64,000 nucleotides of DNA from Escherichia coli (GTDB lineage: Bacteria; Pseudomonadota; Gammaproteobacteria; Enterobacterales; Enterobacteriaceae): NCBI RefSeq assembly GCF_003334335.1, contig NZ_QOWQ01000018.1; one strand, written 5' to 3'. The number at the start of each line of letters is the position of its first letter. Position 1 is the first letter of the stretch. Shown here in pieces: positions 40,164 to 46,888 of this stretch. A program made the translations under genes and the position numbers. The notes under the pieces are model-generated. The model was given only the letters and a program-made list of their open reading frames with translations, had not been told where the DNA came from and searched no databases.

Positions 40164-40332
40164 AAAGAAAAAGGCAGCCTGTGGTTGCCTTTTGCCAATA
40201 ATTCGCACACATTGCGGGTTACTGCTTTATTTTCGTTCAGTGCTGATAACAAACATCAACCTGCAAAACGAAGCGCATAGTTTAAAATGGCTATCATCAA
40301 TACGCTATATCTGATGGAAAAAAATATGCCTA
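40164..40332 (-). ncRNA. sraB: Candidate small RNA SraB (approximate limits)
   Basis: Minus-strand terminator (AGGCAACCACAGGCTGCCT then TTTTTCTTT) ending about 37 nt upstream of the yceD start. Placement from remembered K-12 coordinates. Confidence 0.4.
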
Positions 40333-41021: not shown

Positions 41022-41981
41022 TTAGCGCGCGTTACGCAGCTTTTGCAAACAACGCTTCAAACCTTCATCCATCGGAGCTTCGATACGCATCACCTCACCG
41101 GTCCCCGGATGAGTAAACTTCAACGCTGCAGCGTGCAGGAACAGGCGATTTAATCCCGTGCCTGCTTCAGTGAGCTGCCTGTCAAATTCACGGTCACCGT
41201 AGCGATCGTCAAAGGCAATCGGATGACCCGCATATTGTGTATGCACACGGATCTGGTGAGTACGCCCTGTTACCGGGCTACAACGCACCAGGGTGGCAAA
41301 TGCATAGCGTTCTTCCACTTTAAAGCGTGTTTCCGACGGTTTGCCTTCCTGACTCACACGCACGATACGTTCGCCGCTTTGCAGAATATTTTTCAGTAAC
41401 GGTGCTTGAACGCTCTTCACATGCGACTGCCACTGACCGCGCACCAGCGCCAGGTAATCTTTTTGCATCCCTTTTTCACGTAATTGCTCATGCAGAGAAC
41501 GCAACGCCGAGCGTTTTTTCGCTACCAGCAAAACACCTGAGGTGTCCCGGTCAAGACGATGAACCAGTTCAAGGAACCGCGCTTCCGGGCGCAACGCCCG
41601 CAAACCTTCAATAACGCCGAAGCTTAAACCACTGCCGCCATGTACCGCCGTACCGGAAGGTTTATTCAGCACCAGGATGTGATCATCTTCATATAAGATG
41701 ACGTCCGCCAGCGCCGCCACCTTTTGCAGATGTGGCGAAACCGCCTCTTCTTCCCGCTCAGCAACGCGAACCGGTGGAATACGCACCTCATCACCCGCTT
41801 CGAGTTTATATTCAGGCTTAATACGTTTTTTGTTCACCCGCACTTCGCCTTTACGCAAAATACGGTAAATCATACTTTTTGGTACGCCTTTCAATTGGGT
41901 ACGCAAAAAGTTATCGATACGTTGCCCCGCTTCGTCAGCGGTGATAGCAACAATTTTTACGGATGGAGTCTCTGTTTTCAT
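41022..41981 (-). CDS. rluC: 23S rRNA pseudouridine synthase RluC
   Basis: 319 aa; S4 domain plus RluA-family catalytic motif (HRLDRDTSG). Confidence 0.95.
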   Translation of the reverse strand: MKTETPSVKIVAITADEAGQRIDNFLRTQLKGVPKSMIYRILRKGEVRVNKKRIKPEYKLEAGDEVRIPPVRVAEREEEAVSPHLQKVAALADVILYEDDHILVLNKPSGTAVHGGSGLSFGVIEGLRALRPEARFLELVHRLDRDTSGVLLVAKKRSALRSLHEQLREKGMQKDYLALVRGQWQSHVKSVQAPLLKNILQSGERIVRVSQEGKPSETRFKVEERYAFATLVRCSPVTGRTHQIRVHTQYAGHPIAFDDRYGDREFDRQLTEAGTGLNRLFLHAAALKFTHPGTGEVMRIEAPMDEGLKRCLQKLRNAR

Positions 41982-42192
41982 GGTTGGCGATTCTAATTAG
42001 CCAACAGGATTCGCGCCACTCATTTTTCTATGCTTATATTTACTTTTGCACCTTATTACTTCACTGCGTGATCACTTTATTGATGGTTATTAAACCAATC
42101 ACCAGCAAGAAGTGAAAAAACTGTGAGTAAGCGGGTGATAAATGGTAAAAGTCATCTTGCTATAACAAGGCTTGCAGTGGAATAATGAGGCC

Positions 42193-42553
42193 GTTTCCGT
42201 GTCCATCCTTGTTAAAACAAGAAATTTTACGGAATAACCCATTTTGCCCGACCGATCATCCACGCAGCAATGGCGTAAGACGTATTGATCTTTCAGGCAG
42301 TTAGCGGGCTGCGGGTTGCAGTCCTTACCGGTAGATGGAAATATTTCTGGAGAGTAATACCCAGTCTGTTTCTTTGATAATTGCGCTGTTTTTCCGCATG
42401 AAAAACGGGCAACCGACACTCTGCGCCTCTTTGAGCTGACGATAACCGTGAGGTTGGCGACGCGACTAGACACGAGGCCATCGGTTCACACCCGGAAAGG
42501 CGTTACTTTGCCCGCAGCTTAGTCGTCAATGTAAGAATAATGAGTAAGTTACG
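42193..42553 (+). promoter_or_regulatory. rne 5' leader (autoregulatory untranslated region; approximate start)
   Basis: 572-bp divergent interval between rluC and rne; a long structured leader is known for rne. The 5' limit is not determinable by eye. Confidence 0.45.
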
Positions 42554-45500
42554 ATGAAAAGAATGTTAATCAACGCAACTCAGCAGGAAGAGTTGCGCGT
42601 TGCCCTTGTAGATGGGCAGCGTCTGTATGACCTGGATATCGAAAGTCCAGGGCACGAGCAGAAAAAGGCAAACATCTACAAAGGTAAAATCACCCGCATT
42701 GAACCGAGTCTGGAAGCTGCTTTTGTTGATTACGGCGCTGAACGTCACGGTTTCCTCCCACTAAAAGAAATTGCCCGCGAATATTTCCCTGCTAACTACA
42801 GTGCTCATGGTCGTCCCAACATTAAAGATGTGTTGCGTGAAGGTCAGGAAGTCATTGTTCAGATCGATAAAGAAGAGCGCGGCAACAAAGGCGCGGCATT
42901 AACCACCTTTATCAGTCTGGCGGGTAGCTATCTGGTTCTGATGCCGAACAACCCGCGCGCGGGTGGCATTTCTCGCCGTATCGAAGGCGACGACCGTACC
43001 GAATTAAAAGAAGCACTGGCAAGCCTTGAACTGCCGGAAGGCATGGGGCTTATCGTGCGCACCGCTGGCGTCGGCAAATCTGCTGAGGCGCTGCAATGGG
43101 ATTTAAGCTTCCGTCTGAAACACTGGGAAGCCATCAAAAAAGCCGCTGAAAGCCGCCCGGCCCCGTTCCTGATTCATCAGGAGAGCAACGTAATCGTTCG
43201 CGCATTCCGCGATTACTTACGTCAGGACATCGGCGAAATCCTTATCGATAACCCGAAAGTGCTCGAACTGGCACGTCAGCATATCGCTGCATTAGGTCGC
43301 CCGGATTTCAGCAGCAAAATCAAACTGTACACCGGCGAGATCCCGCTGTTCAGCCACTACCAGATCGAGTCACAGATCGAGTCCGCCTTCCAGCGTGAAG
43401 TTCGTCTGCCGTCTGGTGGTTCCATTGTTATCGACAGCACCGAAGCGTTAACGGCCATCGACATCAACTCCGCACGCGCGACCCGCGGCGGCGATATCGA
43501 AGAAACCGCGTTTAACACTAACCTCGAAGCTGCCGATGAGATTGCTCGTCAGCTGCGCCTGCGTGACCTCGGCGGCCTGATTGTTATCGACTTCATCGAC
43601 ATGACGCCAGTACGCCACCAGCGTGCGGTAGAAAACCGTCTGCGTGAAGCGGTGCGTCAGGACCGTGCGCGTATTCAAATCAGCCATATTTCTCGCTTTG
43701 GCCTGCTGGAAATGTCCCGTCAGCGCCTGAGCCCATCACTGGGTGAATCCAGTCATCACGTTTGTCCGCGTTGTTCTGGTACTGGCACCGTGCGTGACAA
43801 CGAATCGCTGTCGCTCTCTATTCTGCGTCTGATCGAAGAAGAAGCGCTGAAAGAGAACACCCAGGAAGTTCACGCCATTGTTCCTGTGCCAATCGCTTCT
43901 TACCTGCTGAATGAAAAACGTTCTGCGGTAAATGCCATTGAAACTCGTCAGGACGGTGTGCGCTGTGTAATTGTGCCAAACGATCAGATGGAAACCCCGC
44001 ACTACCACGTGCTGCGCGTGCGTAAAGGGGAAGAAACCCCAACCTTAAGCTACATGCTGCCGAAGCTGCATGAAGAAGCGATGGCGCTGCCGTCTGAAGA
44101 AGAGTTCGCTGAACGTAAGCGTCCGGAACAACCTGCGCTGGCAACCTTTGCCATGCCGGATGTGCCGCCTGCGCCAACGCCAGCTGAACCTGCCGCGCCT
44201 GTTGTAGCTCCAGCACCGAAAGCTGCACCGGCAACACCAGCAGCTCCTGCACAACCTGGGCTGTTGAGCCGCTTCTTCGGCGCACTGAAAGCGCTGTTCA
44301 GCGGTGGTGAAGAAACCAAACCGACCGAGCAACCAGCACCGAAAGCAGAAGCGAAACCGGAACGTCAACAGGATCGTCGCAAGCCTCGTCAGAACAACCG
44401 CCGTGACCGTAATGAGCGCCGCGACACCCGTAGTGAACGTACTGAAGGCAGCGATAATCGCGAAGAAAACCGTCGTAATCGTCGCCAGGCACAGCAGCAG
44501 ACTGCCGAGACGCGTGAGAGCCGTCAGCAGGCTGAGGTAACGGAAAAAGCGCGTACCGCCGACGAGCAGCAAGCGCCGCGTCGTGAACGTAGCCGCCGCC
44601 GTAATGATGATAAACGTCAGGCGCAACAAGAAGCGAAGGCGCTGAATGTTGAAGAGCAATCTGTTCAGGAAACCGAACAGGAAGAACGTGTACGTCCGGT
44701 TCAGCCGCGTCGTAAACAGCGTCAGCTCAATCAGAAAGTGCGTTACGAGCAAAGCGTAGCCGAAGAAGCGGTAGTCGCACCGGTGGTTGAAGAAACTGTC
44801 GCTGCCGAACCAATTGTTCAGGAAGCGCCAGCTCCACGCACAGAACTGGTGAAAGTCCCGCTGCCAGTCGTAGCGCAAACTGCACCAGAACAGCAAGAAG
44901 AGAACAATGCTGATAACCGTGACAACGGTGGCATGCCGCGTCGTTCTCGCCGCTCGCCTCGTCACCTGCGCGTAAGTGGTCAGCGTCGTCGTCGCTATCG
45001 TGACGAGCGTTATCCAACCCAGTCGCCAATGCCGTTGACCGTAGCGTGCGCGTCTCCGGAACTGGCCTCTGGCAAAGTCTGGATCCGCTATCCAATTGTA
45101 CGTCCGCAAGATGTACAGGTTGAAGAGCAGCGCGAACAGGAAGAAGTACATGTGCAGCCGATGGTGACTGAGGTCCCTGTCGCCGCCGCTATCGAACCGG
45201 TTGTTAGCGCGCCAGTTGTTGAAGAAGTGGCCGGTGTCGTAGAAGCCCCCGTTCAGGTTGCCGAACCGCAACCGGAAGTGGTTGAAACGACGCATCCTGA
45301 AGTGATCGCTGCCGCGGTAACTGAACAGCCGCAGGTGATTACCGAGTCTGATGTTGCCGTAGCCCAGGAAGTTGCAGAACAAGCAGAACCGGTGGTTGAA
45401 CCGCAGGAAGAGACGGCAGATATTGAAGAAGTTGTCGAAACTGCTGAGGTTGTAGTTGCTGAACCTGAAGTTGTTGCTCAACCTGCCGCGCCAGTAGTCG

Positions 45501-45739
45501 CTGAAGTCGCAGCAGAAGTTGAAACGGTAGCTGCGGTCGAACCTGAGGTCACCGTTGAGCATAACCACGCTACCGCGCCAATGACGCGCGCTCCAGCACC
45601 GGAATATGTTCCGGAGGCACCGCGTCACAGTGACTGGCAGCGCCCTACTTTTGCCTTCGAAGGTAAAGGTGCCGCAGGTGGTCATACGGCAACACATCAT
45701 GCCTCTGCCGCTCCTGCGCGTCCGCAACCTGTTGAGTAA
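42554..45739 (+). CDS. rne: Ribonuclease E
   Basis: 1061 aa; N-terminal S1/catalytic domain ([21 protein letters not shown]), Arg-rich and acidic low-complexity C-terminal scaffold. Confidence 0.98.
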
Positions 45740-45789: not shown

Positions 45790-45934
45790 TCATCTTTGAA
45801 TCAACATATTAAAATTCATCGAATGGCATCCTTGCTAACCAACAATGCAAAATAGGCAAAAAAATGCCCGCCCCAGCGATCCCAGAGCAGGCAGACAAAA
45901 CATACCCAGTTTCATGATATGTTTTAAAGCGAAA

Positions 45935-46888
45935 TTATTTGCTGAGCTGGAAGAGCGACAATCCCTGCATATCGGTAAATGCTTTATACGATGCCTGCAA
46001 TGCCGTTTGCTGCATGATGTAAGATGAAATAGTTGCATTCCAGTCCACATCAACCAGATCGCTCATCTGCTGCGTTTGCCCTAAAGCGCGATCGCTACCT
46101 AATGAATCCAGCGACTCCAGTTCGTTCAGCTGCGTGCCTAATTCCGCGCGAACAGTCAGCACATTGTTCAGCGAGTTTTTCAGTCCGCGGTTGGTTTTAT
46201 CTAACGCCGCAGCGGCGGTTTCTTTATCCGCTTCGCTATCCGCGACCGGCGTTTTCAGGGCTGCGATGGCACTATCCAGCATGGCAAAAAGATTGGTTTC
46301 AGAAGCGCTACCGTCTGGTTCCGCTACCGCGTTGCTGGTAATACTGTCGAAAATTTTGTCACCCGTGTGCCCTATCACCATCGAACGCGAAGCATCGACC
46401 TGTTGTTTAATACTTTCTGCTCCACCGACGTATTTCCCTTTCTCTTCGCTAAACGGCGCAGTCTCTGTTTTATAACCGGCAAAAATGTAGCGCCCGTTAC
46501 CGTCAGTGGTGTTTGCCAGATTCAGCAACTGGTCACGAAGCCCCTGAATATCCGTAGCCAGCGAGGCCCGGTCATCGTCACTCAAGGTGCCATTGCTGGC
46601 GTAGACAATTTTTTCCTGAGCATTCTGGATAGCAGTGGTGACCTGGCTAAGTACACTCTCTTCCAGTGACACTTTTTGAGTGGCGAAAGTACGCGCCAGC
46701 GTGTACTGGCTGTTTTGCGCCTGTGCCTGGGAGAGAACTACGGCTTGTGATGCAGCAATGGGATCGTCAGAAGGGTTAACGACTCGCTTACCCGTCGACA
46801 TCTGTTCGCCGTACTTCATCCATTCTGCCTGAGAATTGGTGATACCACGTATGTTTTGCTGGTACATCATCTGTGTACTGAAACGCAT
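45935..46888 (-). CDS. flgL: Flagellar hook-filament junction protein FlgL
   Basis: 317 aa; flagellin-like N and C termini; synteny. Confidence 0.95.
   Translation of the reverse strand: MRFSTQMMYQQNIRGITNSQAEWMKYGEQMSTGKRVVNPSDDPIAASQAVVLSQAQAQNSQYTLARTFATQKVSLEESVLSQVTTAIQNAQEKIVYASNGTLSDDDRASLATDIQGLRDQLLNLANTTDGNGRYIFAGYKTETAPFSEEKGKYVGGAESIKQQVDASRSMVIGHTGDKIFDSITSNAVAEPDGSASETNLFAMLDSAIAALKTPVADSEADKETAAAALDKTNRGLKNSLNNVLTVRAELGTQLNELESLDSLGSDRALGQTQQMSDLVDVDWNATISSYIMQQTALQASYKAFTDMQGLSLFQLSK

Follow-up and report, generated by a model that had tools for sequence, protein, structure and literature searches.

The 572 bp that separate the divergent genes rluC and rne in Escherichia coli almost certainly consist of the rne promoter and a self-regulating structured leader, with the minus-strand ORF known as yceQ being a by-product of these elements rather than a gene. 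On the side of the present computations, this reading draws on an RNA family match, covariation within the leader, decay of the ORF outside Escherichia, absence of codon periodicity and a codon usage unlike that of genes; the feedback mechanism, the absent ribosome footprints and the genetics come from the literature. Both the rne5 leader and the dubious ORF were already known, and the earlier interpretation of this interval, made in a preliminary description of the DNA, is supported. Autoregulation of rne through its RNA leader is textbook material, and published arguments that yceQ does not code for a protein date back to 2016. What is at stake is chiefly annotation hygiene, as the curated K-12 record continues to include yceQ, and recoding designs and compilations of 'essential genes' still feature it. 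The locus also shows how a conserved structured RNA creates a conserved-looking antisense ORF, a setting in which codon-position statistics give the right answer and ORF length and sequence identity mislead.

In the analyzed window (the whole 64-kb stretch of DNA), rluC (41022-41981, minus strand) and rne (42554-45739, plus strand) form a divergent pair 572 bp apart. The start codon of rluC ends at 41981 on the minus strand and the ATG of rne lies at 42554, leaving a gap of exactly that size:

41982..42553, no strand: rluC-rne divergent intergenic region, 572 bp (ORF coordinates and K-12 annotation)

Every coordinate that the preliminary description had given for this interval, and for a 124-codon minus-strand ORF at 42099..42473 inside it, is correct. 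Its equation of the interval with the known autoregulated rne leader holds in kind, given the match to Rfam RF00040, the distance to the promoter and the covariation, but not in extent: the leader takes up only 361 nt, the other 211 bp (41982-42192) being promoter and upstream DNA. The gap was found in all 5426 complete E. coli genomes, at an identity of at least 99% in 5172 of them, and the rne5 leader in the stretch at hand is 100% identical to that of most E. coli genomes. E. coli and E. albertii share 98.3% identity across the spacer, but only 92.5% in rne and 89.3% in rluC; since the spacer exceeds both of its flanking genes in this respect, it is under constraint at every base, as expected for an RNA combined with a promoter. 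In a wider sample of 80 gammaproteobacterial rne loci (one genome per species, with the first 400 residues of RNase E as the query), about 75 have rluC and rne diverging across a spacer that measures roughly 260-960 bp.

The leader is recognized by the Rfam rne5 model over its full length (model positions 1-333 of 333), with a score well above the gathering score of 180 and an E-value of 3.4e-82. Its features, all on the plus strand, are as follows:

42193..42529, plus: Rfam RF00040 rne5 (RNase E 5' UTR element), full model, 260.1 bits
42193..42553, plus: rne 5' untranslated leader of the P1 transcript, 361 nt (from the rne5 start, the position of the -10 element and the published length)
42244..42300, plus: conserved stem-loop with an invariant ACGCAGCAATGGCGTAAGACGT core (helices 1-4, 6 pairs with compensatory changes)
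42306..42316, plus: 5' arm of the long-range helix 5, which closes a multibranched domain (pairs with 42510-42520; 97.7% of cells paired; also in the Rfam consensus)
42383..42410, plus: conserved hairpin, helix 7 (10 pairs, 2 of them compensatory, 96.7% paired)
42412..42485, plus: conserved extended hairpin, helices 8-11, with an invariant AACCG.GAGGTTG tip (12-species alignment and fold)
42510..42520, plus: 3' arm of the long-range helix 5 (pairs with 42306-42316)
42542..42551, plus: invariant GAGTAAGTTA block directly before the rne ATG, the translation initiation region (columns 350-359 of the 12-species alignment)

To this structure the comparative data give independent backing. Twelve Enterobacterales leaders, aligned independently of Rfam and folded with RNAalifold, yield a consensus of 62 pairs in which 96.6% of the cells are paired and 15 pairs show compensatory double changes, a degree of covariation that none of 500 column shuffles attains. 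When the partners are slid by 1-3 columns, pairing falls to 30-40% and the double changes to 0-5, although in this comparison the structure was derived from the same alignment on which it was tested, which favors the real fold over its slid versions. The fold obtained in this manner reproduces the helices of the Rfam consensus.

The element sits directly upstream of rne, on its coding strand, and extends from the P1 transcription start, both here and in the 11 other genomes. These are all of the free-living Enterobacterales loci sampled (E. albertii, Citrobacter, two Enterobacter, Superficieibacter, Klebsiella, two Yersinia, two Photorhabdus and Acerihabitans), each of which has an above-threshold match, scoring 232-320 bits, at the same position. 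Matches below the threshold, at 31 bits, were recovered in Haemophilus and in one Enterobacterales MAG, and none in a search of Vibrio, Shewanella, Pseudidiomarina and Pseudomonas; the rne5 family as modelled is essentially Enterobacterales-wide. In every respect that can be read from sequence the leader is a member of this family: element, strand, place upstream of rne, 361-nt UTR and covarying hairpins are the same, and nothing about it differs. As a separate observation, the divergent rluC-rne arrangement with a long spacer also occurs in Vibrio, Shewanella, Pseudomonas, Xanthomonadaceae and Legionella, where the rne5 model matches nothing, and unrelated long rne leaders may exist in such gammaproteobacteria. 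A permissive Rfam search of 41500-43000 additionally returned mir-316 on the minus strand, which we rejected as a chance match (E-value 0.53; 20 bits against the required 80).

In mechanistic terms, transcription from P1 at about 42193 would generate a 361-nt structured 5' UTR, a conserved stem-loop of which would be bound by RNase E, leading to a faster decay of the enzyme's own mRNA. Cellular RNase E activity would in this way set the half-life of the rne mRNA, with the level of the enzyme feeding back on its synthesis. The studies of Jain and Belasco in 1995, of Diwa and co-workers in 2000 and of Schuck and co-workers in 2009 are said to have shown that RNase E acts on the leader in cis, and it is reportedly the second of these that provided the hairpin names hp2 and hp3 and showed direct binding of RNase E to a leader stem-loop. 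We take the stem-loop at 42244-42300 to be hp2, the RNase E sensing hairpin of that study. Feedback of RNase E on the decay of its own mRNA via the leader is established in E. coli, according to the part of PMC10989929 that cites this work (Jain & Belasco 1995; Diwa et al. 2000; Schuck et al. 2009). Upstream of P1, where further rne promoters have been reported, the predicted layout continues with a double DnaA box and the DNA that precedes rluC. The yceQ ORF, for its part, would be a stretch without stop codons on the strand opposite a sequence that hardly varies within Escherichia, a constancy attributable to selection on the RNA and the promoter.

The promoter region comprises two recognizable elements:

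42157..42186, plus: rne P1 promoter, with TTGCTA, an 18-nt spacer and a TG-extended AATAAT (promoter scan; conserved in 12 of 12 species)
42121..42142, minus: double DnaA box TTTATCACCCGCTTACTCACAG, upstream of P1 (exact match to a published ChIP-seq site)

P1, with its -35 element at 42157-42162 and its -10 element at 42181-42186, is the only sigma-70-like site detected in a scan of 41800-42700. The -10 element ends 7 nt upstream of 42193, and this position points to a transcription start at approximately 42193 and thereby to a UTR of 361 nt, which is the length published for E. coli (PMC10989929). A terminator scan of the rluC-rne interval found none. The location of the primary rne promoter inside yceQ has been noted previously (Price et al.; Goodall et al.), and a 555-bp fragment upstream of rne has been described as containing P1-P4 (PMC8361080). 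The DnaA box corresponds to a DnaA ChIP-seq peak designated '(yceQ) rne' at K-12 coordinate 1144772, where a double DnaA box was recorded (PMC11317965). In the intergenic alignment the block with this pair of closely spaced 9-mers is conserved in Enterobacteriaceae. The boxes suggest an added transcriptional input to rne, already published as a candidate (PMC11317965).

Closer to rluC, a stretch of about 60 nt adjoining its ATG (41985-42042, GCGATTCTAA...GCGCCACTCATTTTTCTATGCTTA) is kept from Escherichia to Yersinia and Acerihabitans and contains no obvious Shine-Dalgarno sequence for rluC; presumably it is the promoter or 5' UTR of rluC or an upstream promoter of rne. This Enterobacterales-conserved block is split in some genomes by an IS1A insertion, flanked by a 9-bp target duplication (GCTTATATT) at 42032-42040 (positions 1551-1559 and 2328-2336 of locus L002), which lies between the rluC start codon and P1 and has its transposase pointing in the direction of rne. 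A query spanning the IS1A junction is covered to at least 80% in approximately 330 of the 5426 complete E. coli genomes.

The antisense ORF occupies the strand opposite to P1 and much of the leader:

42099..42473, minus: 124-codon GTG-started ORF antisense to P1 and the leader, judged non-coding (ORF list)
42099..42419, minus: the same frame as annotated in K-12 (yceQ, b1085, 106 aa; mapped from NC_000913.3)

It spans the P1 promoter and the first 281 nt of the leader. The preliminary description had placed it at the position of the doubtful yceQ annotation, and this is borne out: in NC_000913.3, yceQ (b1085) lies at 1144502-1144822 and starts at an internal GTG of the 124-codon frame, of which the K-12 annotation covers 106 codons. 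As frame and stop codon are shared, the 124-codon ORF is the yceQ frame with a 5' end 18 codons longer, beginning at the GTG at 42473. Its K-12 designation as a 'DUF2655 domain-containing protein' is retained in the curated record, in contrast to the RefSeq PGAP annotation of other E. coli, which omits the gene: a spread sample of 60 PGAP-annotated RefSeq E. coli genomes has no feature under the ORF in any of them, and even the PGAP-annotated MG1655 assembly NZ_AKBV01000001.1, unlike NC_000913.3, has no annotation there. The product matches nothing in Pfam-A, even at E-values up to 10, or in NCBIfam at E-values up to 1, and the DUF2655 label is stale, since no current Pfam-A model matches. Its relatives in a collection of 5.8 billion proteins amount to 30 clusters, those with names being all from Enterobacteriaceae, with lengths of 61-156 aa and a query coverage of 30-98%; a spread of this kind is usual where ORFs are called opportunistically in conserved DNA that does not code for protein. 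Consistently, tblastn matches of the product in related genomes fall in differing frames, which has, to judge from these matches, the look of a translated conserved nucleotide sequence.

Could yceQ nonetheless be a real, young gene, restricted to Escherichia, that arose de novo antisense to the rne leader and is expressed weakly or under special conditions? We consider this highly improbable. Essentially all of the 5426 complete E. coli genomes have the frame intact, as does E. albertii. The length of the ORF is exceeded or equalled in only 49 of 5000 dinucleotide-preserving shuffles of the region (that is, it is longer than in 99% of them), an SD-like GAGG precedes the annotated GTG, and the curated K-12 annotation keeps the gene. 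The first three of these points have another source. In the window, 63 ORFs that reach 100 codons or more lie mostly within a longer ORF, and with dozens of equally long shadow ORFs in a single window the length of the yceQ frame is unremarkable at the scale of a genome. The GAGG, 6 nt upstream of the annotated GTG, is the complement of a conserved leader block, CTGCGCCTC, in which one column varies between C and T. Length, intactness in E. coli and E. albertii and the GAGG would all follow from the near-invariance of the underlying RNA, and survival of the ORF within Escherichia from the constraint on every base exerted by RNA and promoter together.

Beyond Escherichia the frame decays. With the E. 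coli frame projected onto the alignment of the 12 intergenic regions, 8 of the 11 other Enterobacterales show it broken, both by indels whose length is no multiple of three and by in-frame stops, of which there are 2-10. Already in Citrobacter werkmanii, from the next closest genus, there are two +1 insertions and premature stops, and Klebsiella, Superficieibacter, both Yersinia, both Photorhabdus and Acerihabitans have several frameshifting indels along with 2-10 stops in the reference frame. Enterobacter BIGb0383 is frameshifted with no stop in the reference frame, its longest antisense ORF having 90 codons, and in Enterobacter sp. Bisph1 the frame is uninterrupted by virtue of two pairs of compensating one-base shifts. 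Every species with a broken yceQ frame has kept the leader. Even within E. coli, a 1-nt insertion in the A-run at 42114 changes the C-terminus of the ORF in strain 30EVA1.

The substitutions that separate these genomes are likewise not those of a coding sequence. Across seven Enterobacteriaceae, the fractions of variable columns at the first, second and third codon positions of the yceQ frame are 0.42, 0.31 and 0.35, as against 0.07, 0.02 and 0.70 in the first 375 nt of rne and 0.18, 0.07 and 0.86 in rluC from the same genomes. Of the 4 substitutions between E. coli and E. albertii in the 375 nt of the ORF, 3 are non-synonymous and 1 is synonymous, which also speaks against a young gene. The same is true of its codon usage: the log-odds, trained on the real genes of the window, is -0.266, below that of all 61 of these genes (minimum -0.112) and inside the range of the 63 shadow ORFs (mean -0.173). 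Counting further against a young gene, 8 of the 124 residues of the product (6.5%) are cysteines, a scan of the minus strand detects no promoter-like site from which it might be expressed, and PGAP does not call it. The conservation and codon-substitution analysis that the preliminary description had named as a check on the ORF has, in short, found a frame broken in most of the Enterobacterales sampled and no third-position excess. Its verdict that the ORF is probably not a real gene stands, on the strength of frame decay, missing codon periodicity, non-genic codon usage, lack of a family and the published profiling without reads. The yceQ ORF lacks every mark of a protein-coding gene that is open to testing at the level of sequence.

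Published experiments point the same way. Price et al. recovered no YceQ ribosome-profiling reads in three conditions, which tells against a young expressed gene, and remarked on strains in which the ORF is disrupted. Its disruption is indeed tolerated: a nonsense mutation at codon 8 of yceQ is present in a viable reduced-genome strain (PMC10249474), and strain Z22-2 (NZ_CP159750.1, locus L084) carries an IS1 that lies inside the ORF, abuts the -35 element of P1 and is flanked by a duplication of its 9-bp target (42148-42156). This IS1 is independent of the IS1A at 42032-42040 and has the opposite orientation; it puts about 780 bp between the double DnaA box and P1 in what is a viable isolate from a hospital. 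Transposon insertions in yceQ were recovered by Price et al. only in the orientation able to drive rne, and TraDIS gave the same orientation bias, with the 'essential' status of yceQ in the Keio and PEC data being ascribed to the rne promoter inside it (Goodall et al.). A CRISPRi screen, similarly, registered a fitness effect only with guides oriented to block rne transcription. In Salmonella Typhimurium the yceQ ortholog is an annotated pseudogene, yet is strongly selected against insertion (PMC3487940).

These strand asymmetries also bear on another possibility, namely that the minus strand gives rise to a non-coding cis-antisense RNA, which would pair with the rne leader and modulate rne in the manner of an 'excludon'. 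An RNA-seq tool does list rne-yceQ among divergent overlapping pairs; the pair is bound to be listed, since yceQ as annotated overlaps the 5' UTR of rne. The asymmetries in the transposon and CRISPRi data are fully explained by rne transcription, the scan of the minus strand offers no promoter-like or terminator-like site for such a transcript, and that strand has no Rfam match beyond a chance miRNA (E-value 0.53). We accordingly accord an antisense RNA only the slimmest of chances. A promoter and leader serving rne, with yceQ as their shadow, remain the reading that we prefer, in which both the 'protein conservation' and the 'essentiality' of yceQ are side effects of the rne leader and promoter.

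The behavior of yceQ in recoding projects fits this reading. Attempts to place synonymously recoded serine codons of yceQ in the genome failed (PMC7614783), and the Syn61 recoding account states that recoding of yceQ disturbs the regulation of the adjacent essential gene. Intolerance of synonymous change argues for constraint at the level of the RNA and is the opposite of what constraint on a protein would predict. The candidate recoding-resistant codons in the 124-codon frame are 20, 25 and 33 (42414-16, 42399-401 and 42375-77), two of which fall in helices 7 and 8; we infer that they are the published resistant positions, their spacing being 15 and 24 nt as compared with the published 14 and 24 nt. 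The same account names yaaY beside yceQ as likewise a hypothetical ORF within the regulatory DNA of an essential neighbor. Both thereby resemble the spurious 5'-UTR ORFs that are scored as essential or resist recoding, both effects coming from the neighboring gene. For its part, yceQ stands out in being antisense to a highly structured, covarying leader, and it is to this position that its unusual sequence conservation can be traced.

The surroundings of the locus provide a few further observations. Two small RNAs mapped from the K-12 annotation lie nearby on the minus strand, namely SraB at about 40164-40332, between yceF and yceD, and FlgO at about 45858-45935, at the 3' end of flgL; Rfam matches SraB in two of the comparison loci as well, those of E. 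albertii and Citrobacter. On the strand opposite the C-terminal half of rne runs a 560-codon shadow ORF (44045-45727, minus strand), for which the biased composition and the repeats of the RNase E scaffold region are the probable cause.
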